Below are positions 11,847-26,041 of a stretch of 60,606 nt of DNA, piece by piece. Position 1 is the stretch's first letter; each line of letters begins with the position of its first letter. The notes under the pieces were generated by a model. It was not told where the DNA came from. It searched no databases and was given only the letters and a program-made list of their open reading frames with translations. Origin of the DNA: Bacteroidota bacterium (GTDB lineage Bacteria > Bacteroidota > Bacteroidia > Bacteroidales > GCA-2748055); assembly GCA_002748055.1 (NCBI GenBank), contig PDRI01000097.1, positions 1-60,606 on the forward strand, given 5' to 3'. The position numbers were made by a program, and so were the translations under genes.

Positions 11847-11854
11847 TAATTTTG
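11847..11854 (+). promoter_or_regulatory. Candidate -7 promoter element (TAATTTTG) for recR-lysA
   Basis: Exact TAnnTTTG match 11 nt before the recR ATG, which would give a very short leader. Confidence 0.3.
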
Positions 11855-13785: not shown

Positions 13786-15738
13786 ATGGAACTCTCGGTC
13801 GTCATCGTCAATTACAATGTCAGGTATTTCCTTGAGCAATGCCTCCATTCGGTTTTTGAGGCAATTGAGGGCATAGAAGCTGAAGTCTTCGTTGTTGACA
13901 ACAATTCAGTGGACGGATCCATGGCCATGGTGGCCGAAAGGTTTCCCCGGGCCATCACAATCAAAAACCCGAAGAACCTGGGCTTTTCCAGGGCGAACAA
14001 CCAGGCCATCCGGGCTTCGAAGGGCCGGTATGTTCTGCTGCTCAACCCCGACACGGTGGTGGAAGAAGATACTTTTCACAAGTGCCTGGCTCATATGGAT
14101 GCCCATCCCGATGCCGGGGCACTGGGTGTAAAGATGATAGACGGGAAGGGCCAGTTCCTGCCCGAATCGAAACGGGCACTGCCCACCCCCCTTGTTTCCT
14201 TCTATAAGATGTTTGGCCTGACCCGGCTCTTCCCCCGTTCGAAGGTCTTTGGAAGGTACCACCTGGGACATCTCAACAAGGACCAGAATCACGAGGTGGA
14301 GGTGCTGGCAGGAGCCTTTATGTTTATCAGGCATGAAGCCCTGGATCGGGCAGGAATGCTCGACGAAGCCTTCTTCATGTATGGCGAGGACATCGACCTC
14401 TCCTACCGCATTACCAAAGCCGGATACAAGAATCTGTATTTTTCCGAAACCACCATCATCCACTACAAGGGGGAAAGCACGAAGAAAGGCAGCCTCAACT
14501 ATGTCAGGATCTTCTACCAGGCTATGATCATCTTCGCGAACAAGCACTTTAGCCAGCGTATGGCCCGCAGTTACAGCCTGCTCATCAACCTGGCCATCTA
14601 TTTCAGAGCGGGCCTGTCGGTCATGAAAAGGTTTGCCCGAAAACTGTACCGTCCGCTGCTCGATGCCGGGCTCATCTTCGGAGGCTATACCCTTGCCCTT
14701 CCGCTATGGGAACAGGTTCGCTTCGACATAGCCGGGTACTATCCACCCTTCTTCCTGCAAGCGGTGGTGCCCGGCTATATTCTGATCTGGCTTTTATCCA
14801 TCTACTATGCAGGAGGCTACGACCGGCCTTTAAAAACCCTGGCCTTCCTGAAGGGGCATCTGATTGGAACCCTGATCATCCTGGTAATCTATGCCCTCCT
14901 GCCACTCGACTGGCGCTTTTCAAGAGCCCTCATTTTCATGGGTTCTGCCTGGGGCATGCTGAGCATGCTCGGACTCAGGCTCCTCGGTCACCTCGCGGGC
15001 AGTGCCGACTACCGAATCGACCTGAATAAACAAAAACGGCTGCTCATTGTCGGCCATGCTGAGGAATCCCGCAGGGTTCACGAACTTCTCCTTGACACCC
15101 AGATCAAACCCGACGTCGTCGGCTACGTTTCGCCCGACACAGAAGAAAAGGGAAGCGAGTTCATTGGAAAGGCGGAACAAATCGATGAAATAGCCAAGGT
15201 GAACCGAATCGACGAAATCGTATTTTGTTCGAAAGATCTCTCTGCCCGGTCAATCATCCGGATCATGACCCGGTTTAACGGAAACTCACCCGATTTCAAG
15301 ATCGCTCCACCCGAAAGCCTCTCGGTAATTGGAAGCAACTCCATTGACACGGCCGGGGAGCTATACACCATCCCGGTAAACACCATTGGAAAGGCTTCGA
15401 ACCAACGCAGCAAAAGATTGCTCGACCTCGTACTCGGAATGGCTTTACTGCTCACCTTTCCCCTTTGGATCCTGTTTGTCAGGGGCCACTTCAAAAGCCT
15501 GGGCAATGTAATCAGGGTTATTCTTGGAAAGCGAAGCTGGGTGGGCTACATGAACCTGGACGAAGGCAAGCTGTCTGAACTCCCTCCGCTGCGAAAGGGA
15601 ATTCTCCACCCGGGAATGGGCCTGCGTATCGATCACCAAAACCCCGAACGTGTCCGAAAAATAAACATGGTCTATGCCCGGGATTACAGTGTGATCAACG
15701 ATCTGTTGATAATCACTCGAAATTTCAGAGAGATATAA
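13786..15738 (+). CDS. Family-2 glycosyltransferase fused to a WbaP-like membrane/Rossmann/PGT-like C-terminus lacking the catalytic core
   Basis: N-terminus has VVIVNYN...VVDNNSVDGS...LLLNPDTVV (GT2). The middle has several TM helices. A Rossmann-like segment follows (RLLIVGHAEESRRV...IDEIVF). The C-terminus has KRLLDLVLGMALLLTFPLWIL, then directly VILGKRSWVGY and DYSVINDLLIITRN. Confidence 0.7.
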   Translation: MELSVVIVNYNVRYFLEQCLHSVFEAIEGIEAEVFVVDNNSVDGSMAMVAERFPRAITIKNPKNLGFSRANNQAIRASKGRYVLLLNPDTVVEEDTFHKCLAHMDAHPDAGALGVKMIDGKGQFLPESKRALPTPLVSFYKMFGLTRLFPRSKVFGRYHLGHLNKDQNHEVEVLAGAFMFIRHEALDRAGMLDEAFFMYGEDIDLSYRITKAGYKNLYFSETTIIHYKGESTKKGSLNYVRIFYQAMIIFANKHFSQRMARSYSLLINLAIYFRAGLSVMKRFARKLYRPLLDAGLIFGGYTLALPLWEQVRFDIAGYYPPFFLQAVVPGYILIWLLSIYYAGGYDRPLKTLAFLKGHLIGTLIILVIYALLPLDWRFSRALIFMGSAWGMLSMLGLRLLGHLAGSADYRIDLNKQKRLLIVGHAEESRRVHELLLDTQIKPDVVGYVSPDTEEKGSEFIGKAEQIDEIAKVNRIDEIVFCSKDLSARSIIRIMTRFNGNSPDFKIAPPESLSVIGSNSIDTAGELYTIPVNTIGKASNQRSKRLLDLVLGMALLLTFPLWILFVRGHFKSLGNVIRVILGKRSWVGYMNLDEGKLSELPPLRKGILHPGMGLRIDHQNPERVRKINMVYARDYSVINDLLIITRNFREI

Positions 15739-15774: not shown

Positions 15775-18700
15775 ATGAAACGACTCCTGTTCTCTGCCGC
15801 TTTTTTATTGCTCATCGCATCCCTTCCAATGAAGGCTCAACGGGATACCCTTCGACGGGTTTTCCTCAATGCCGAGTCCTGGATGCTCTACGAAGAATAC
15901 AAAGAAGCCCTCCCGCTTTATCGCAAGCTGCTGAGTGCCGATCCAGGCAATAGCAATCTGAAATACAAGATTGGCATTTGTCTGCTTAACGACCCTTATC
16001 AGAAGGACAAGGCCATCAATTACCTGCGTGAAGCCAGCCAAAACATCAATCCCGACTGCAAGGAAAACAGTTTTAAGGAAAGAACGGCTCCACCCGACGT
16101 GCTTTACTACCTGGGGGATGCCTATCTGGTAAACCAGTTGCTGGATCAGGCCGTAGCATCCTATGAGTCCTTTCTGAAAATCATGGACGAAGCCATTTAC
16201 GATGAAGAACTTGTGCTTGACCAGATTGAGGCCTGTAAACATGCCCAGGAGCTCATTGGAAAACCGGTTGACCTTGACCTTTTCCTGCTCGACACCCTCA
16301 TCAACTCCAGATACGCCGAGCTCAATCCGGTTGTATCCGGAGACGGGCAGACAATGGCTTTCATTAAGGAGCTCCCCTTTTACGACGGGGCATTTATCAC
16401 CAGGAAGCAAGCCGATGGCTGGTCCTACCCCCAGGCCATCACCTCTGCCCTGGGTTTCGACGAAGGCGTCTATCCGGTTGCCCTGTCCCACGATGGAACA
16501 GAGATGATTCTATACTACAATGACGAGTACATCGGAAACCTTTACTACAGCCGTCTGAAAGAGGGAATCTGGCAGAAGGCCAGAAAAATGGGAGAGAATA
16601 TTTCCACCAAATACTGGGAGTCGAATGCCTGTTTCAGTCCCGATGGGAAGTACATCTATTTTACCAGTAACCGCAAGGGGGGCTATGGAGGGCTGGACAT
16701 CTACCGTTCGAAGCGGCTGGACGGGGATAAATGGGGCAGCCCGGAAAACCTGGGCCCAACCATCAATACGCAGTACAACGAGGAAACACCTGCGATCACA
16801 GAGGACGGAACGCTTTATTTCAGTTCCTACGGCCACAGCAACATGGGTGGCTATGATGTGTTCCGTTCGAGCCAGAATGAAGATGGCAGCTGGACCACCC
16901 CCGTAAACATGGGGTATCCGATCAATACCACAGATGATGACATGTCCTTCGCGCCTATCAGCAACGGCAAGGGAGCTTACTATTCTGTTTACAGTTCCAA
17001 AGGGCTGGGCCGGCACGATATTTACTACATGGACATCTACTCCGAAGACAATCCCCGGATGTATGCCGTATCCGGAAACCTGAGCGCGCGTGACAGGGAC
17101 GGGACTTCTGCCGATGCCTGGGTCAATGTCCTGGAAGCCGATGACGGAGATACCTTACTCCGATTACCGGCCGACCCGAAAAGCGGCGACTTTATTTTCA
17201 GCGTCAAAAAGGGTGACTATGCCCTTCATATGGCTGCTGAGGGCTTCGAAACCCTGGTGGTGCCTCTGGAGGTGGGTTCTCCTGAAGACAAAAACGGCAT
17301 CAGTCTGGGCGGAAATATCACGCTTACTCCCCTGGAAGCCGGGGAAGAACATCTGGTTCTGGAAGGCGACGAAAGCATAATCAGGCTGCGTGAAAACAGC
17401 TATGTGGCAAAGGCCGGCGAATCCATTAAGGTTCCGGTCAGGGTGGAAAAGGGAAGTGAACTCCTGATCCGAACATACAAGGATGGCGTGCTTATTGACA
17501 CAGATACCATTTTGGCCAGGAAGAGGCGAATAAATCTGGATCTGGAGGTACATCCGGGCGAACAGCTCATCGAAATCGAAACCAGGGATAAAGCCGGAAA
17601 CATCCACCGGAATACCCTGAAGCTGAAGGGCGAAACCATAAGTGAAGAGAGCCGCAGAGACAAAGCAGAAACAGCCCGTGATAAAGAGGCCAGTGATGCA
17701 GGGAGCAGCGCCGGCAAAGAAGATCCCCGGAAAGCAATCGCTGACAACTCCGATCCGAGTACGGAGATCCAGGCCGATCGAAACAAAGAGGCCGTGGAAA
17801 CGGCAGGCGTGAACAGGTCCGATGGGACTGAAATCCTGCAACCCGAGGAGGTGTTGAGCAGGCATCCGGGCGAGGAGCTTACCACGAAGCTCATGCTCAT
17901 GGACCTCAGGGACGAAGCCCGGGGAAAACTCAAGCAGGCACTCGATGAGCTCGACCTTGAAAAAGAAGGAATCCACTCAGGCAGAGCTCTTTTTGAGCAC
18001 CTCTACCAGCACGCTGAAGAAAAGGGTTACAGCACCAGGGAGGTAACCGACCTGTTGGCCGGAGTAATCTCGGGCGGCAACCTTGAGGCTTTCATTGAGG
18101 CCCTTATCAAGCATTCCGACGGAGCCCTGCACGACTATCTCCTTGAGTTGGATACAAAGGCATTGGGCATCGACAGTCCGAAGGCACTTCTCCTTCATCT
18201 GCAAGAGCTTGGAGACTCAAAGGGCTTTAACATGGAGCAGGTCTGGGACGCGATGATTGAGGCACTCTATAAACCGGGAATGCCGGCTTCAGCAGTGCCT
18301 GCCGCCCTGACCCTCATCGATCTGAGGCAAAGTGCAGATGGCCCGCTGCTTGAAGCACTAAAGGACCTCGATCCGACATCCGGCGATCTCTTGTCATCCA
18401 GGGCCCTGTTTGAAAAGCTCTATGAGCTGGCCGGGGAATACGGCTATACCGAGGAAGACGTGGATAGATTGCTTGCCGCACAGCTGGGCATGGATGCGAG
18501 TGCAGGCAGAGAAGCCCTTTTGGCAGCCCTGGAAAAGGAAGAAATCAGAACCCTTGCAGAACTTGCGGGAGGAGGCGACCCCGCACTTCTTTTCAGGAAG
18601 TTGCTCGAACAGGCCGATGGCGCCCTTTCGGACTTCCTGACAGAAAAGGGAGAAGATCTGGAAAAACTCGGCTCAATAGCTGAACTCGTCAGGCTCCTGG

Positions 18701-19095
18701 AACTCGAAGCCGCCAAAGGCCGGTTCGACATGCAAGACGTCAGGGACACCCTGGTTCGTGCAATGGAAAACAGACTGGCGGTTGAGGACTTGTTTGCACA
18801 TCTGCTCGAGGTCGCAGAGCCCCCGCTTAGCAAGGCCCTGGAAAAGATCGCCTTAAGACGGGACAGGATTTACGGTCCCGAAGCACTGATTACCAGAATT
18901 TACGAGATCCTTCTGAAGATGGGCCTGAGCGATGAAGAAGCCCGGAACCTGCTTTCCGAATATATGCCGGGCCACAAAGCATTCATCGATACCCTGGGAC
19001 AGATTGAATTCGCCACCGGCCTTCTGTTGGCGGCCGCCGGCATTGGATTATTGATCCTTATCATCTTGCTGGTGAGGCGCAGAAAGAAAGAGTGA
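15775..19095 (+). CDS. Secreted TPR + PD40 (TolB-like beta-propeller) protein with acidic linker, five helical repeats and a C-terminal TM anchor
   Basis: Signal peptide MKRLLFSAAFLLLIASLPMKAQ. PD40 repeats include FSPDGKYIYFTSNRKGGYGGLDIYRS and GGYDVFRS. The C-terminus is GLLLAAAGIGLLILIILLVRRRKKE. Confidence 0.75.
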   Translation: MKRLLFSAAFLLLIASLPMKAQRDTLRRVFLNAESWMLYEEYKEALPLYRKLLSADPGNSNLKYKIGICLLNDPYQKDKAINYLREASQNINPDCKENSFKERTAPPDVLYYLGDAYLVNQLLDQAVASYESFLKIMDEAIYDEELVLDQIEACKHAQELIGKPVDLDLFLLDTLINSRYAELNPVVSGDGQTMAFIKELPFYDGAFITRKQADGWSYPQAITSALGFDEGVYPVALSHDGTEMILYYNDEYIGNLYYSRLKEGIWQKARKMGENISTKYWESNACFSPDGKYIYFTSNRKGGYGGLDIYRSKRLDGDKWGSPENLGPTINTQYNEETPAITEDGTLYFSSYGHSNMGGYDVFRSSQNEDGSWTTPVNMGYPINTTDDDMSFAPISNGKGAYYSVYSSKGLGRHDIYYMDIYSEDNPRMYAVSGNLSARDRDGTSADAWVNVLEADDGDTLLRLPADPKSGDFIFSVKKGDYALHMAAEGFETLVVPLEVGSPEDKNGISLGGNITLTPLEAGEEHLVLEGDESIIRLRENSYVAKAGESIKVPVRVEKGSELLIRTYKDGVLIDTDTILARKRRINLDLEVHPGEQLIEIETRDKAGNIHRNTLKLKGETISEESRRDKAETARDKEASDAGSSAGKEDPRKAIADNSDPSTEIQADRNKEAVETAGVNRSDGTEILQPEEVLSRHPGEELTTKLMLMDLRDEARGKLKQALDELDLEKEGIHSGRALFEHLYQHAEEKGYSTREVTDLLAGVISGGNLEAFIEALIKHSDGALHDYLLELDTKALGIDSPKALLLHLQELGDSKGFNMEQVWDAMIEALYKPGMPASAVPAALTLIDLRQSADGPLLEALKDLDPTSGDLLSSRALFEKLYELAGEYGYTEEDVDRLLAAQLGMDASAGREALLAALEKEEIRTLAELAGGGDPALLFRKLLEQADGALSDFLTEKGEDLEKLGSIAELVRLLELEAAKGRFDMQDVRDTLVRAMENRLAVEDLFAHLLEVAEPPLSKALEKIALRRDRIYGPEALITRIYEILLKMGLSDEEARNLLSEYMPGHKAFIDTLGQIEFATGLLLAAAGIGLLILIILLVRRRKKE
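17899..18972 (+). repeat. Five tandem ~55-60-aa predicted-helical repeats encoded inside the 1106-aa CDS
   Basis: Units such as MDLRDEARGKLKQALDELDLEKEGIHSGRALFEHLYQHAEEKGYSTREVTDLL and IDLRQSADGPLLEALKDLDPTSGDLLSSRALFEKLYELAGEYGYTEEDVDRLL recur five times with decreasing similarity. Confidence 0.6.
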
Positions 19096-19123
19096 GGCCC
19101 TATTGCCCTGTCGATTAAATTTT

Positions 19124-19131
19124 TAAATTTG
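19124..19131 (+). promoter_or_regulatory. Candidate -7 promoter element (TAAATTTG), with TTG 18 nt upstream
   Basis: Exact TAnnTTTG match 27 nt before the 19158 start. A TTG lies at 19103-19105. Confidence 0.35.
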
Positions 19132-19157
19132 TAGTATTCACGCTAAAAGCACCCGGG

Positions 19158-21149
19158 ATGAGAAGATCAATATGGATGCTCTGGCTCTTACTTTTAGCCA
19201 GCCTGTCACACGCACAAACTGTCAGGGAGAATTATTTCGATGGCGAATTCTTCCTCGCTCAGGAAGAATATGAGGAAGCGCTCTTTGCCTACAGCAAGGT
19301 CTATAAATACGGTTATGAGGACAATGCCAGCCTAAACTACAGAATGGGAATCTGCCTGTTGAATATACCGGGCAGGAAAGCAGAATCCATACCCTACCTC
19401 GAAAAAGCTGCATTGTCGGTTTCGGATCGTTACAAAGGAACCTTCAAAGAGGAAGTAGCCCCACCCGATGCCCTCCTTTACCTGGGCAATGCCTATCGAA
19501 TCAACATGGAGTTGGAGAAGGCAATTGAGAAGTACCAGGAGTACCTGGTGTACCTGACCAAAAACCGTGACAAGCTTCAAAAGGACTATACCGAGGCCCA
19601 GATTCTCTCCTGCCAAAATGCCGTTAAAGCGATCAATTCTCCTGTCGATTTCAGCATTGGAAACCTGGGCGAAGTAAAACAAACCCATCCGGCACCCTAT
19701 AACGTGGTCTTTTCACAGGATCGCAAACACCTGGCCTATATGGGTAAAAACCCCTTTTACAATGCCGTCCTCTATGCCTATATCCAGGAAGACGGAACCT
19801 GGTCAGAACCACGTGACCTGTCTGCAGAGATTGTTTCGGACAGCAATATGGACGTGGTTGGTCTTTCCGCGAAAGGAGACCTTATGCTGCTGGCTGTTTA
19901 TGACGAGTTCGACAGCAACATTTACAGCTCGACCCGAAATGAAGATGGCAGCTGGAATCCCGCAGTTCCCCTCGGAAAACCTGTAAACTCGCGTTTCTAC
20001 GAATCACATGCCGCCCTCAGCAGCGATAAAAAATCGCTCTACTTTACCAGCAACAACAATAAATCACTCGGAGGCATGGACATCTTCAGGTCTGATCTGC
20101 AGCCAGATGGCAGCTGGGGCGATCCGGTCAACATGGGCGAGGGCATCAACTCCCCGCTGAATGAAGACTGCCCCTTTCTCAGTCCCGACGGGAAACGCCT
20201 GTATTTCAGCTCCCAGGGCCACAACACCATTGGGGGCTATGACTTGTTCTATGTCGATCGAAATACAGATGGAAGCTGGGGGAGTCCCGTAAATGTTGGC
20301 TATCCGCTGAACAGCACAGATGATGATTTCGCTTTCTCGCCCAACGGACTGCTGAAGTATGGCAGCACCCTGGTTTTTGCCAAAGGCGTAGATACCTACG
20401 ACCTCTTCCAATTCGGATTAATTGACCCGGAAGCTACTGCAAAGCCGGTTGATTTTAGCTACCCACCTGTTCCTGCCGATGAAATACTGGTACTCACTGC
20501 CGGGAAGGTTAATCCTTCACAGCATGCCCTGGCAGAGAAAGAAAACCCGGAAAAAGAGGACTCCGGGGATGTCGCAGGGAAAGAGGTATCAGAGATTCCG
20601 GAAGTGCCGGTTCAGACGGAGGAAACAGCCGTGACGGAGAAAGAGGAACCCCTGGCCCGGGCCGGGGAGCCTGCAGCCCCTGAAGAAGCAAAGCAGGCTG
20701 TGGAAAAGCCTGCGCCGGTAAGCGAAGCTTCACGCTACCTGATCAAGCCCATCTTCTTTGGATTTGAGAGCGATGCCCTTACGGCCGCTTCCAAGGCCAA
20801 GCTTGACGAGCTGTATAACCTGCTTGAGCAATTCCCCGCACTCAAACTGAGGATAATCGGACACACCGATGCCCTGGGTAGTTACGAATACAATACCTGG
20901 CTTTCGCTGAAGAGGGCGAAAGCAGTTTCCCGCTATCTGATTGCAGCAGGAATTGATGCCAACCGGCTCGAGCTAAAAGGAGAGAGCGAAGCTATGCCTG
21001 TAGCCATTAATAAAACCAGGGATGAACGGGATGCTCCGGAAGGACGAAAACTGAACCGGCGGGTGCAATTCGATGTCCTGGTCGATCTGGATGTAGTGAT
21101 TGAGATGGAAAAAATTGAAGTGCCCCAGCACCTGAAAATAAAAGATTGA
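19158..21149 (+). CDS. Secreted TPR + PD40 + Pro/Glu-rich linker + OmpA/Pal-like peptidoglycan-binding protein
   Basis: Signal peptide ...LLLASLSHAQ, PD40 repeats (LSPDGKRLYFSSQGHNTIGGYDLF) and an OmpA_C-like segment from about 20736: IIGHTDALGSYEYNTWLSLKRAKAV...NRRVQF. Confidence 0.8.
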   Translation: MRRSIWMLWLLLLASLSHAQTVRENYFDGEFFLAQEEYEEALFAYSKVYKYGYEDNASLNYRMGICLLNIPGRKAESIPYLEKAALSVSDRYKGTFKEEVAPPDALLYLGNAYRINMELEKAIEKYQEYLVYLTKNRDKLQKDYTEAQILSCQNAVKAINSPVDFSIGNLGEVKQTHPAPYNVVFSQDRKHLAYMGKNPFYNAVLYAYIQEDGTWSEPRDLSAEIVSDSNMDVVGLSAKGDLMLLAVYDEFDSNIYSSTRNEDGSWNPAVPLGKPVNSRFYESHAALSSDKKSLYFTSNNNKSLGGMDIFRSDLQPDGSWGDPVNMGEGINSPLNEDCPFLSPDGKRLYFSSQGHNTIGGYDLFYVDRNTDGSWGSPVNVGYPLNSTDDDFAFSPNGLLKYGSTLVFAKGVDTYDLFQFGLIDPEATAKPVDFSYPPVPADEILVLTAGKVNPSQHALAEKENPEKEDSGDVAGKEVSEIPEVPVQTEETAVTEKEEPLARAGEPAAPEEAKQAVEKPAPVSEASRYLIKPIFFGFESDALTAASKAKLDELYNLLEQFPALKLRIIGHTDALGSYEYNTWLSLKRAKAVSRYLIAAGIDANRLELKGESEAMPVAINKTRDERDAPEGRKLNRRVQFDVLVDLDVVIEMEKIEVPQHLKIKD

Positions 21150-21151
21150 AA

Positions 21152-22621
21152 ATGAAGCGCCTTATCCCCTTACTTCTTTTGTTATGCGGCCTGGGGCTTC
21201 AGGCCCAGAACCAAACAACAGAAGAGCAGTTTTATGATGCAGAGTTCTTTTTCAGTGAGGAGGAAGACTACGAGGAAGCGGCCTATCTGTTCGAGATGGT
21301 TTTGCTGGCCGAACCCGACAATGCCAATGTTAAATTCATGCTGGGCCAGTGCTATAACAATATTCTGGGATTGGAAGCCAAAGGCATTCCCTATTTCCTG
21401 GAGGCTACAAAGGACATCAGCCTGAAATACAAAGCAGGCCGTTTTAGCGAAAAGAGGGCCCCGCATCACACCTGGTTTTACCTCGCTGAGGCCTACAGAA
21501 AGACCAACCAGATCGACAGTGCCCTGAATGCCCTGAACCGCTTTAAAGACCTGAAAGACTTTGAAAAACACTACAACCTCAGGATTACCAACGATGAAAT
21601 TGCCGCAGTTGAGCGCTCCAAAATCATCCGGGATGCTGAGCTGAACCTGCGCACACTCTTTTTTAACAAGCCCATTAATACGGTTCAGAATGACTACAAC
21701 GGTGTAATCTCGGCCAACGGAGAAATGCTGATCTGGGTAAATTCCAAGGCCTTCTATGAGGCCGTTTACATGTCGAGGCGCGAAGGCAATAAATGGAGCC
21801 TGCCGGAACTGATCACCCCCCAAATCGTTTCCGACGGGGACCTCTTCCCCTCCGGGCTTTCGGCGGATGGCACAACCCTCCTGCTGGTAAAGCGGCCTAA
21901 AAAAGGCGATTCCGATATCTGGTACAGCCAGTTCGACGGCCTTCTCTGGAGTCCCGCTCAGCCCCTCTATGGTGACATCAACTCGAGGTCTGATGAGAGT
22001 CACGCCTCTTTCAGTCCCGATGGTAAGCGGATCTATTTTACCAGCACCCGGCGGGGAGGTGAAGGAGGATCCGACATCTGGTATTCCGACAGACAGAGCG
22101 ATGGAAGCTGGGGAAAGGCTGTAAACATGGGGCCATCCATCAACACAGACAAGGATGAAACCTGTGCTTACATGGCTCCGGACGGCAGCAGTTTCCTCTT
22201 CAGCTCGAAGGGCCACTTCAACATGGGGGGCTATGATGTATTCCGCAGCCTGAGGGAAGGCGAAGGCTGGAGCGAACCCAACAACATGGGCTATCCGATC
22301 AATACCACTGCTGACAATACCTACTATGTCCCCTTAAACAATGGCATGAGTGGGCTCTATACCCGCTATAGCAATGATGCTGTGGGTAAACAGGACCTCT
22401 GGTATGTTGAGGTGCTTCCCGAAGATGGTTTCATCAGCGAGGGGCTCTCACTCTCTATCGACCCCGATAAAGGACTAAGCCGTAAAGACTTTGCCATCGT
22501 TGTTGTAGATGAGGAAAACGGACAGGAAATTGAGATCATTTACAATGCGGAAAAGGACAGTTTCAGCGCCCTTTCTGCCAAGGGCCAGAAGTACAAAGTC
22601 ATTTCCTACAAGCAGCAATAA
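21152..22621 (+). CDS. Secreted TPR + PD40 protein (shortest paralogue)
   Basis: Signal peptide MKRLIPLLLLLCGLGLQAQ and PD40 repeats (FSPDGKRIYFTSTRRGGEGGSDIWYS, GGYDVFRS). The ATG at 21152 is preferred over the TTG at 21146. Confidence 0.75.
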   Translation: MKRLIPLLLLLCGLGLQAQNQTTEEQFYDAEFFFSEEEDYEEAAYLFEMVLLAEPDNANVKFMLGQCYNNILGLEAKGIPYFLEATKDISLKYKAGRFSEKRAPHHTWFYLAEAYRKTNQIDSALNALNRFKDLKDFEKHYNLRITNDEIAAVERSKIIRDAELNLRTLFFNKPINTVQNDYNGVISANGEMLIWVNSKAFYEAVYMSRREGNKWSLPELITPQIVSDGDLFPSGLSADGTTLLLVKRPKKGDSDIWYSQFDGLLWSPAQPLYGDINSRSDESHASFSPDGKRIYFTSTRRGGEGGSDIWYSDRQSDGSWGKAVNMGPSINTDKDETCAYMAPDGSSFLFSSKGHFNMGGYDVFRSLREGEGWSEPNNMGYPINTTADNTYYVPLNNGMSGLYTRYSNDAVGKQDLWYVEVLPEDGFISEGLSLSIDPDKGLSRKDFAIVVVDEENGQEIEIIYNAEKDSFSALSAKGQKYKVISYKQQ

Positions 22622-23152
22622 TTGAAAGGCCTGGAAAACAGGAGTATTCGTCTTCGGGCCCTGGAGCCTGAAGACCTCGACATTCTCTATACCTGGGAAA
22701 ACAACCCGGATATCTGGCATCTTTCCACCATTCTGGCCCCCTGGTCCCGGCATGTCCTCAGGCAATACCTGGCCCAGGCTGCCGAAGATATCTACACGCA
22801 GAAACAACTGAGGCTGCTTATTGAAACGCGGGACGACGAACGGCCACTTGGGGCCATCGACCTCCATGATTTTGATGCCCATCACCGGCGGGCCGGCGTG
22901 GGCATCCTCATTGCAGAACCGGCCGACAGAAGGCAGGGCTATGCCCGTGAAGCACTGGAAACCCTGATCTCATACAGTTTCAACATCCTGAACCTGAATC
23001 AGCTTCATTGTCTGGTGAAGCCCGACAATGAAGCCAGCCTTGCCCTGTTTAAAGGAGCGGGGTTCAAAGTAAGTGGGGAAATAAAGGCCTGGCACTTTGC
23101 CAACGGCCGCTTCCACGACATGCTTTTCCTGCAATGCCTGCAGCCTCTATAA
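22622..23152 (+). CDS. GNAT-family N-acetyltransferase (RimJ/RimL-like)
   Basis: IRLRALEPEDLD start and acetyl-CoA motif RRQGYAREALETLISYSF. The apparent TTG start directly follows the upstream stop codon. Confidence 0.7.
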   Translation: MKGLENRSIRLRALEPEDLDILYTWENNPDIWHLSTILAPWSRHVLRQYLAQAAEDIYTQKQLRLLIETRDDERPLGAIDLHDFDAHHRRAGVGILIAEPADRRQGYAREALETLISYSFNILNLNQLHCLVKPDNEASLALFKGAGFKVSGEIKAWHFANGRFHDMLFLQCLQPL

Positions 23153-24419: not shown

Positions 24420-25427
24420 ATGGCAGGCTATGAGCAAGTGCTGAATGACTTAAAGAAAAGGGACTTCAAGCCCATCTATTTCCTCTCCGGAGATGAGCCC
24501 TATTACATTGATCTGCTCACGGACTACATCCTTGAGCATACCCTTCCCGAGGCCGAACGAAGCTTCAACCAGACCATCGCCTATGGGAAAGACACCACTG
24601 CCAGCCAGCTCATTAACATTGCCCGTCGTTTCCCCATGATGTCTGCTCACCAGGTAGTGGTGCTCCGGGAAGCCCAGGATATGAAAGACTTTGCCAGTCT
24701 TATTCACTATATAGAGGCCCCCCTGGCCTCCACCCTGCTTGTCATAAACTACAAGTATAAGAAGCCCGATAAACGGCTAAAGGTCTTTGCTTCCCTGAAA
24801 AAGCACGCGGTCTGTGTCGAGTCCAAAAGGCTTTACGACAACCAGCTGCCCGGATGGATTTCGGCTTATGCCAAAAAACACAAATACAGCATTGAGCCCA
24901 AAGCATCTGCACTCCTGGCCGAATTCCTGGGCAGTGATCTGGGACGGATTGCGAGTGAGATGGATAAGCTCTTCATCGCTGTGGGTAGCAAAAATAAGCA
25001 GATTGACACTAAGCTTATTGAAAAAAACACGGGGATCAGCAAAGACTATAACCAGCTGGAGCTTTCAACTGCACTGGGAGAACGCGATGCCTTAAAGGCC
25101 AACCGCATCGTAGGCTATTTCTGTCGGAACCCGAAGAACCATCATATCTCACTAACCATCGCCTCGCTTTACTATTATTTCTCAAAGCTCCTCATGATCC
25201 ACTATTTAAAAGACAGGAGCAAAAAGAGCGTGGCCTCTGTCCTGAAAATCCATCCCTACTTCGCCGGGGAGTATCTGAGCGCTGCAAAACGCTACAGTGC
25301 CATGAAGCTGGTAGGGATTATTTCGCTCTTGCGCGAATACGACATGCGATCGAAAGGCTATGGCGGAGATGCCACGGACCAGGGAGAATTGCAGCGTGAA
25401 CTGATTCTAAAAATCCTCTACGCTTGA
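24420..25427 (+). CDS. holA: DNA polymerase III delta subunit
   Basis: PIYFLSGDEPYYID N-terminus, a length of about 335 aa, and a C-terminal helical domain. Confidence 0.8.
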   Translation: MAGYEQVLNDLKKRDFKPIYFLSGDEPYYIDLLTDYILEHTLPEAERSFNQTIAYGKDTTASQLINIARRFPMMSAHQVVVLREAQDMKDFASLIHYIEAPLASTLLVINYKYKKPDKRLKVFASLKKHAVCVESKRLYDNQLPGWISAYAKKHKYSIEPKASALLAEFLGSDLGRIASEMDKLFIAVGSKNKQIDTKLIEKNTGISKDYNQLELSTALGERDALKANRIVGYFCRNPKNHHISLTIASLYYYFSKLLMIHYLKDRSKKSVASVLKIHPYFAGEYLSAAKRYSAMKLVGIISLLREYDMRSKGYGGDATDQGELQRELILKILYA

Positions 25428-26041
25428 TCACGCTCAGCATTGTCATCGCCACCACCCTCTTTTCCGTTGCCGCCCTTCAGCGGCGCGATCTGATGTACCG
25501 CTTCGACCTGGCCCCCTCGAAAATCGTCCACAACAAGCAGTACTACCGCATCTTCACACATGCCCTGCTACATGCCGACTACATCCATCTGGGAATTAAC
25601 ATCCTGGTTCTGTACTCCTTTGGAAGAGCTGTAGAGGCCATTTTCATGCAACTTGAACAGGAAGGGCTCATCTTTTCGGCCAGCTTCTATTACGTCCTGC
25701 TCTATGTCACAGGCATTGCTTTTTCCTCGCTGACAAGCATATTTCGTTACCGGAACAATCCGGCATACAGCTCCATTGGTGCATCGGGAGCCGTATCGGC
25801 AGTGGTCTTTACCCACATCTTTTTTTCGCCCCTGGATAAGGTGTATTTTTACGGCATACTTCCCCTTCCCGGAATTCTGTTTGGCATACTCTACCTCCTC
25901 TATTCCAGCTATATGGAACGCAGACAACAGGACAACATTAACCACTCGGCTCACTTCTGGGGAGCCGTTACCGGTTTCCTGTTCCCCTTGCTGCTCGAGC
26001 CCGGACTGATAAAAGTATTCATCAATCAGCTTAGGGGATGA
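25424..26041 (+). CDS. Rhomboid-family intramembrane serine protease
   Basis: HADYIHLGINILVLYSFG, the GASGAVSAVVF catalytic-Ser context, and HFWGAVTG. It has a TTG start overlapping the holA stop. Confidence 0.8.
   Translation: MITLSIVIATTLFSVAALQRRDLMYRFDLAPSKIVHNKQYYRIFTHALLHADYIHLGINILVLYSFGRAVEAIFMQLEQEGLIFSASFYYVLLYVTGIAFSSLTSIFRYRNNPAYSSIGASGAVSAVVFTHIFFSPLDKVYFYGILPLPGILFGILYLLYSSYMERRQQDNINHSAHFWGAVTGFLFPLLLEPGLIKVFINQLRG

Follow-up and report, generated by a model that had tools for sequence, protein, structure and literature searches.

Three adjacent PorE-like genes in an uncultured Bacteroidales bacterium: a candidate periplasmic scaffold with differently anchored heads

Three adjacent genes on the forward strand of a contig from an uncultured Bacteroidales bacterium encode related exported proteins. 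The window, meaning the whole stretch of DNA analysed, covers positions 1 to 60,606 of contig PDRI01000097.1 (assembly GCA_002748055.1; 2.5 Mb, 82% complete), that is, 60,606 nucleotides (nt). The genes are referred to as copy 1 (c1; open reading frame 15775-19095, 1106 amino acids), copy 2 (c2; 19158-21149, 663 amino acids) and copy 3 (c3; 21146-22621, 491 amino acids counted from TTG 21146), and together as the trio. Their common part of approximately 400 residues, a TPR-like domain followed by a propeller, is called the head. A previous description made from the letters alone, the sequence-only reading, had seen here three adjacent paralogues, each with a signal peptide, over which the periplasmic parts of the Tol-Pal system would be redistributed. 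The features of the three genes are the following.

15775..19095, forward strand: c1, with a PorE-like head, a long stalk and a predicted C-terminal inner-membrane anchor (Pfam, NCBIfam, AlphaFold2 model, orthologues)
15775..15840, forward strand: c1 signal peptide, residues 1-22, cleaved at ...MKAQ/RD (from sequence; ...FAQ/RDS in orthologues; no lipobox Cys)
15841..16257, forward strand: c1 TPR-like helical domain, residues 23-161 (TPR_19 25.0 bits, at the cut-off; seven helices in the AlphaFold2 model)
16270..17040, forward strand: c1 five-bladed PD40 propeller, residues 166-422 (PD40 62.4 bits; Foldseek)
17062..17634, forward strand: c1 two beta-sandwiches, residues 430-516 (CRD-like) and 528-620 (strands of the AlphaFold2 model)
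17644..17859, forward strand: c1 acidic disordered linker, residues 624-695 (predicted local distance difference test, pLDDT, below 50; rich in E, A, S and D; net charge -8)
17866..18990, forward strand: c1 five helical repeat units of about 70 amino acids each, residues 698-1072 (self-similarity, separate model)
19000..19095, forward strand: c1 transmembrane helix, residues 1076-1105, then an RRRKKE tail and the stop codon (AlphaFold2 model; orthologues)
19158..21149, forward strand: c2, with a PorE-like head, a Pro/Glu-rich linker and a predicted OmpA_C peptidoglycan anchor (Pfam, NCBIfam)
20430..20732, forward strand: c2 Pro/Glu/Ala-rich linker, residues 425-525, about 100 amino acids (E19, A16, P13; net charge -14)
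20754..21077, forward strand: c2 OmpA_C-like domain, residues 533-640 (PF00691, E-value 2.5e-21; D571, N579, R586)
21078..21146, forward strand: c2 conserved C-terminal extension, ...VIxEMEKIEVPxHLK... (orthologues)
21146..22621, forward strand: c3, a head with a short CRD-like beta tail and no anchor (Pfam, NCBIfam, orthologues)
22421..22618, forward strand: c3 C-terminal tail, residues 426-491, about 65 amino acids, KDFAIxVVDEExGxEIEVIYD...YKVISYKQ (conserved in orthologues)

BLASTP comparisons indicated that c1, c2 and c3 are mutually paralogous, with 32-36% identity across approximately 400 amino acids (E-values of 5e-83, 1e-64 and 7e-78), and the closest relatives of each member in its own genome were the other two. 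Each protein has a Sec-type signal peptide, as judged from its sequence, and no lipobox cysteine was seen at the predicted cleavage sites of the three copies when these were inspected by eye and compared with orthologues. The PD40 family matched all three (60-62 bits against a Pfam cut-off of 20.9), TPR_19 reached or exceeded its cut-off in c1 and c3, and the TPR matches of c2 were all sub-threshold. The common TPR-like segment and the TolB-type PD40 repeats that had been noticed by the sequence-only reading were therefore recovered along with the paralogy, the former at sub-threshold level in c2.

The head resembles that of PorE (PG1058) from Porphyromonas gingivalis, in which the TPR, WD40 and CRD domains span residues 25-149, 167-435 and 441-527 (PMC7192894). 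In c1, a signal peptide, a TPR-like domain, a five-bladed propeller and a CRD-like sandwich follow one another in the same order and at near-equal residue numbers, and the OmpA_C domain at the end of c2 shares its peptidoglycan-binding residues with that of PorE. The resemblance is partial: the four PorE domains (TPR, propeller, CRD and OmpA_C) are never all found on one trio chain, c1 and c3 lacking OmpA_C and c2 lacking the CRD; the wall anchor is replaced in c1 by a stalk and a predicted inner-membrane anchor; and the trio has neither a lipobox nor a PorP gene nearby. The NCBIfam model for PorE, NF052230, gave 145.6 bits for c1, 193.4 for c2 and 105.7 for c3 against a cut-off of 600. CHU_0125, an OmpA-like outer-membrane integrity protein of Cytophaga hutchinsonii, belongs to the same superfamily, shares the head and has the same layout as c2. 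It differs in that the trio scores only 121-183 bits against the cut-off of 620 of its model, NF053607 (c1 153.6, c2 182.6, c3 121.2). The matches to this superfamily extend over the TPR, propeller and CRD regions. Because these scores lie far under both cut-offs and a bona fide PorE is encoded elsewhere in the same genome (C84:2365-4350, 693 bits with NF052230), the trio is, by profile comparison, a separate branch of the PorE/CHU_0125 superfamily that is neither PorE nor CHU_0125. The signal peptide region of the genome's own PorE contains no cysteine; unlike P. gingivalis PorE, this protein is probably not a lipoprotein. Besides this PorE, at least five more paralogues are encoded in the genome, and no CHU_0125 equivalog (NF053607) was found in it. 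Homologues carry generic names only.

The AlphaFold2 model of c1, built on 60 homologues, reached a pLDDT of 83.8. Cys69 and Cys154 of the TPR-like domain are invariant across 60 orthologues. The blade motifs of the propeller lie approximately 50 amino acids apart and are centred on D-G near residues 186, 237, 286, 341 and 395, the fifth reading S-N-G-K-G. The best solved matches to the model in Foldseek were TolB structures (E-values of 3e-7 to 1e-6 over approximately 250-290 columns, 18-19% identity), although the trio propeller has five blades and that of TolB six. A propeller in c1 and an OmpA-like fold in c2 had been expected from the letters, and both are present. The first sandwich of c1 (430-516) aligns with the PorE CRD, the alignment to the PorE model extending to residue 492, and a weak match to CarboxypepD_reg was obtained in the sandwich region with permissive Pfam settings (E-value 0.042). 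The acidic linker, the five helical repeats and the transmembrane anchor that had been ascribed to c1 were all found, but the single beta-sandwich of that description proved to be two.

The helical units of c1 were resolved by self-comparison, in which the diagonals scored 69, 55 and 53 and shuffled sequences reached 41 at most. When modelled separately, this region formed a compact repeat domain rather than one long single helix (pLDDT 90.4, predicted template modelling score 0.70). It had no match in Pfam, NCBIfam, PDB sequences or Foldseek, where the best E-value was 0.12. With the C-terminal half of c1 as query, word-based searching returned only two relatives; exhaustive searching with phmmer found the region in just 95 of 1.84 billion cluster representatives, nearly all with the same architecture. 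A hidden Markov model of the unit counted 0 to 11 units per c1 homologue (n = 120), unit number and protein length being correlated with r = 0.99, and c1 orthologues from the genus of the window had 0, 1, 1, 3, 3, 4, 5 and 5. Since the number of units runs from none to 11 across homologues, the helical array is a dispensable stalk of variable length. Some JGI names suggest EF-hand or RecX for these units, an identity that received no support from Pfam, NCBIfam or Foldseek. A metagenomic protein of 2108 amino acids (P0124) has 19 helical units behind a different, repeat-rich N-terminus that is neither TPR nor PD40, and it has no C-terminal transmembrane helix, so that use of the unit extends beyond the c1 family.

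A C-terminal transmembrane helix with a basic tail was found in approximately 118 of 120 c1 homologues, both in the genus of the window and in other families. It reads as a plain anchor. A signal peptide at the N-terminus, combined with the positive-inside rule, predicts an anchor in the inner membrane, a tail in the cytoplasm and an ectodomain that lies wholly in the periplasm. A C-terminal sorting signal was considered and rejected: orthologues have no conserved LPXTG, PEP or GG motif ahead of the helix, and an LPXTG model matched c1 solely in its transmembrane and basic part (model positions 11-33). No exosortase was found in 13 genomes of the genus, including that of the window, nor in two further genomes (G022 and G025). 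Nor did the nearby rhomboid gene (25424-26041) qualify as a linked rhombosortase: its 27.9 bits fall short of the cut-off of 84, and it is part of the general syntenic block; the rhomboid protease gene is kept in that block down to relatives whose c1 is 35% identical. Three long c1 homologues (P0121, P0122 and P0169, the record of the last being N-terminally truncated) have a conserved Glu within the transmembrane helix (..EGL..), and in the genus of the window the small-residue motifs AGAG or AAAGIG stand in its place. Either motif may be a helix-helix contact site within the membrane.

The OmpA family (PF00691) is confined to c2 among the trio. Its domain matches OmpA-like chains of the PDB, PorE 6TOP among them, and the peptidoglycan-binding triad D571/N579/R586 is intact and conserved in the 17 orthologues checked out of 17, which included members of a fourth group, c2', described below. 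PorE binds peptidoglycan (PMC7192894; PMC12773672), and its residues D576 and N584, essential for this binding (PMC12773672), have the same spacing as D571 and N579 of c2. The linker ahead of the domain occupies the position of the PorE CRD and has no Pfam match. The Pro/Glu linker and the OmpA/Pal-like domain first proposed for c2 are thereby borne out. For c3, the absence of an anchor held, whereas the notion of a minimal protein did not quite: its conserved tail, which has no Pfam match, aligns with the first sandwich of c1.

All three genes are present in 18 of 18 genomes of the genus and are adjacent wherever contigs allow. In seven genomes examined in detail, the block recR, lysA, GT2 fusion gene, c1, c2, c3 and GNAT gene is syntenic; the synteny of this block extends to a relative with a c1 of 35% identity, and the trio is adjacent in several other Bacteroidales families. 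The sequence-only reading had proposed to check for such conservation of the three as neighbours. In a tree of 64 heads, one clade of 40 rows received an SH-aLRT (Shimodaira-Hasegawa-like approximate likelihood ratio test) value of 99 and divided into c1 (99), c2 (99), c3 (100) and c2' (100). Members of the c2' group have a head and an OmpA_C domain and are encoded between the c1 and c2 genes in other families of Bacteroidales; the genus of the window has none. Examples of c2' are the following.

L023:9363-11354
L024:9074-11074
L043:15140-17134
L074:15483-17501

Because c1, c2, c3 and c2' form separate supported clades, the duplications are placed by the tree before the split of several Bacteroidales families. 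A c1-specific query found orthologues in 0 of 300 class-wide genomes and approximately 10 of 251 in the order, counts that come from an insensitive query, as the c1 C-terminus diverges fast and misses known orthologues. Judged from its known carriers, the trio lineage is narrow.

To our knowledge, Bacteroidota have no canonical Tol-Pal system, and little is understood of what holds their envelope layers together; the present candidates are PorE-type proteins, of which the forms we know to have been described are anchored in the outer membrane or the wall only. Based on the domains and anchors above, we lean, with moderate confidence, towards the trio being a passive scaffold in the periplasm, with one PorE-type head tethered to the inner membrane, a second to the wall and a third unattached. 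In this proposal, c1 would hold its head at the inner membrane on a stalk made of the two Ig-like sandwiches, the acidic linker and the variable helical array; c2 would hold a head on peptidoglycan through OmpA_C, behind its flexible linker of approximately 100 amino acids; and c3 would supply an unanchored head. The set, probably co-expressed, may couple envelope layers or position a partner. It is from the anchors, the spacing of the genes and the relatives of the heads that we infer where the proteins reside, that they are expressed together and associate, and that they act in the envelope. For this last role, deletion of CHU_0125, which causes outer-membrane defects and a six-fold increase in vesicles, provides the best functional precedent.

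A PorE-type head on an inner-membrane anchor, a trio of this kind, or the helical repeat was not found described in the literature. The trio is a concrete and testable candidate for a link between inner membrane and wall; it includes a predicted inner-membrane-anchored PorE relative, kept as part of a set, and it brings with it a helical repeat family that is uncharacterised and for which no analogue was found among solved structures. All the carriers found are uncultured, which limits its significance.

Several observations weigh against this scaffold. No trio member has an outer-membrane anchor, so that a tether from inner membrane to wall could extend to the outer membrane only with the help of a partner. 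The wide variation in stalk length is ill suited to a precise spacer. One relative (L032) has c1 alone at the locus. Finally, the Bacteroidota -7-like motif TAAATTTG lies at 19124-19131, in the 62-nt gap between c1 and c2 and 27 nt ahead of the c2 start, and could be a sign that c2 is transcribed separately from c1.

The case of L032, together with the c2' gene added in some families and the synteny of the whole block from recR to DUF179 over large distances, would also fit three independent paralogues with unrelated partners, whose adjacency would reflect tandem duplication within a stable housekeeping block. We regard this as quite improbable: the three anchor types have stayed side by side from a time before the families split, none of the three genes is missing from the same-genus genomes, and the spacing of c2, c3 and the GNAT gene is close to zero. 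A bolder form of the scaffold proposal would make the trio one physical complex, in which c1 supplies the inner-membrane arm that a compact, Tol-Pal-like tether of the PorE type has so far lacked. Such a tether would join the inner membrane (c1), the wall (c2) and the outer membrane (via partners bound by the heads) in a TolB-less Bacteroidales clade, with the helical stalk of variable unit number setting the reach of the arm. We give this form only a small chance.

The Tol-Pal system bears on these proposals in another way. The TPR, propeller and OmpA_C domains of PorE have already been read as counterparts of CpoB, TolB and Pal, and PorE was proposed to be a compact Tol-Pal-like tether (PMC12204202). 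The trio shares with the proteobacterial TolQ-TolR-TolA-TolB-Pal-CpoB system a TolB-like propeller, a Pal-like OmpA_C domain and a CpoB-like TPR module, and to this extent the Tol-Pal inventory drawn up by the sequence-only reading stands, its parallels having been published for PorE. The remainder of that inventory, a TolA-like c1, does not. TolA and TonB are marked by an N-terminal transmembrane helix with a His-containing SHLS-type motif, an extended domain II and a characteristic C-terminal domain. In c1, the anchor lies at the opposite end of the chain, its helix contains no His and hence no SHLS-type motif, the repeats are compact and dispensable, and no TolA or TonB_C match was obtained in the trio at E-values up to 10 (Pfam) or 1 (NCBIfam). 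The trio also differs from Tol-Pal in having no TolB N-terminal domain, no lipoprotein and no linked motor. The TolB equivalog TIGR02800 gave 17.6 bits for c1 and 19.9 for c3 against 343, with no TolB_N match in Pfam, and the Pal equivalog TIGR02802 gave 55.3 bits against 125 for c2, which has no lipobox.

It could still be supposed that the trio replaces Tol-Pal, with c1 in the place of TolA and driven by an ExbBD/TolQR-type motor encoded elsewhere, c2 and c3 taking the Pal, TolB and CpoB roles, and the whole providing energised stabilisation of the outer membrane at division. The parallel folds speak for this, as do the absence of any detected TolB equivalog from the genome at its present completeness and the existence of three MotA/ExbB genes in it. 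These lie on contigs C115, C97 and C67, however; no MotA/ExbB/TolQ gene was found on the window contig, as had been stated for TolQ/TolR and ExbB/ExbD, nor in the syntenic blocks of relatives. The trio has no outer-membrane lipoprotein either, and a stalk of 0-11 units, missing in some orthologues of the same genus, is at odds with a TolA-like arm, as are the C-terminal position of the anchor and the lack of the motif and terminal domain. Redistribution of the Tol-Pal parts over the trio was thus not upheld, and we consider the replacement of Tol-Pal by the trio very unlikely.

A further possibility is offered by type IX secretion. The heads might bind PorP/SprF-like outer-membrane shuttles and so tie surface cargo complexes to the wall (c2) or the inner membrane (c1). 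In PorE, the WD40 domain is implicated in the binding of PorP, a protein of the outer membrane. A single genome of Bacteroidota can encode several PorE homologues that are not lipoproteins, and these are regarded as static wall anchors (PMC7192894; PMC12773672). Flavobacterium johnsoniae has five operons of a PorE homologue, an SprF-like shuttle and a type B cargo protein (for example Fjoh_3950-3952). Its genome and that of the window are alike in encoding several non-lipoprotein PorE homologues, but each of its operons pairs a single homologue with shuttle and cargo, whereas the trio brings three heads together with no shuttle or cargo gene. Besides a true PorE, the genome of the window encodes six PorP/SprF-like genes, none on the window contig, and the four that have no adjacent PorE-like gene could be partners of the trio. 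In the other two cases (C131:9941-12255 and C74:24441-27021), the PorP/SprF-like gene is directly followed by a PD40 paralogue of 467 or 579 amino acids with no OmpA domain, a shuttle-plus-PorE-like arrangement of the kind described in F. johnsoniae. No PorP/SprF-like or cargo gene lies beside the trio, here or in the relatives examined, although these two paralogues do follow one directly, and type IX secretion offers no known precedent for a PorE relative anchored in the inner membrane. A role of the trio as type IX accessories is therefore unlikely in our view, and the passive scaffold is retained as the preferred reading.

The trio is flanked by two genes that are given as context.

13786..15738, forward strand: GT2 fused to a phosphoglycosyl-transferase-like membrane scaffold, upstream neighbour
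22622..23152, forward strand: GNAT acetyltransferase with a TTG start, downstream neighbour

The same-strand gap of 36 nt reported between the GT2 fusion gene (stop at 15738) and c1 (start at 15775) was confirmed. At the other end, the TTG start of the GNAT gene directly abuts the c3 stop (0 nt). With such spacing, and with PorE-like genes after the GT2 fusion in approximately 20 of approximately 60 loci in several orders, the trio could be imagined to serve, in the periplasm, as the scaffold of a glycan that the membrane GT2 fusion enzyme makes and GNAT modifies, much as TPR scaffolds do in synthase-dependent polysaccharide secretion. No fewer than 596 loci in Bacteroidota carry the GT2 fusion gene, though, and the trio comes next in a subset only. 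Approximately 40 of the approximately 60 loci with enough flanking sequence have no PorE-like follower, the usual order being recR, GT2 fusion, GNAT. In other orders, the PorE-like genes that do follow fall into a clade apart from the trio, so the linkage is not orthologous, and the block contains no outer-membrane porin or export gene. A glycan scaffold is accordingly held to be highly improbable.

GT2 fusion and GNAT genes are direct neighbours in many Bacteroidota (L036, L041, L046, L048, L060 and others). From these arrangements it looks as if the trio was inserted between the two genes, or lost from between them elsewhere. An obligate functional link of the trio to the GT2 fusion gene is weakened by the frequent loci in which GNAT follows directly with no trio; the link looks largely positional, and a functional one is possible.

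Within the trio, c2 and c3 overlap by 4 nt if c3 starts at TTG 21146. By comparison with orthologues, which likewise begin with MKRLIP..., the ATG at 21152 is the likelier start; it lies 2 nt past the c2 stop. A scan for sigma-70 promoters and terminators gave counts no higher than in shuffles. A second Bacteroidota -7-like motif, TAATTTTG, was seen at 11847-11854, 11 nt ahead of recR. Because this motif is not enriched across the window (20 found against 29 expected), both TAAATTTG and TAATTTTG are read as no more than hints of transcription starts.

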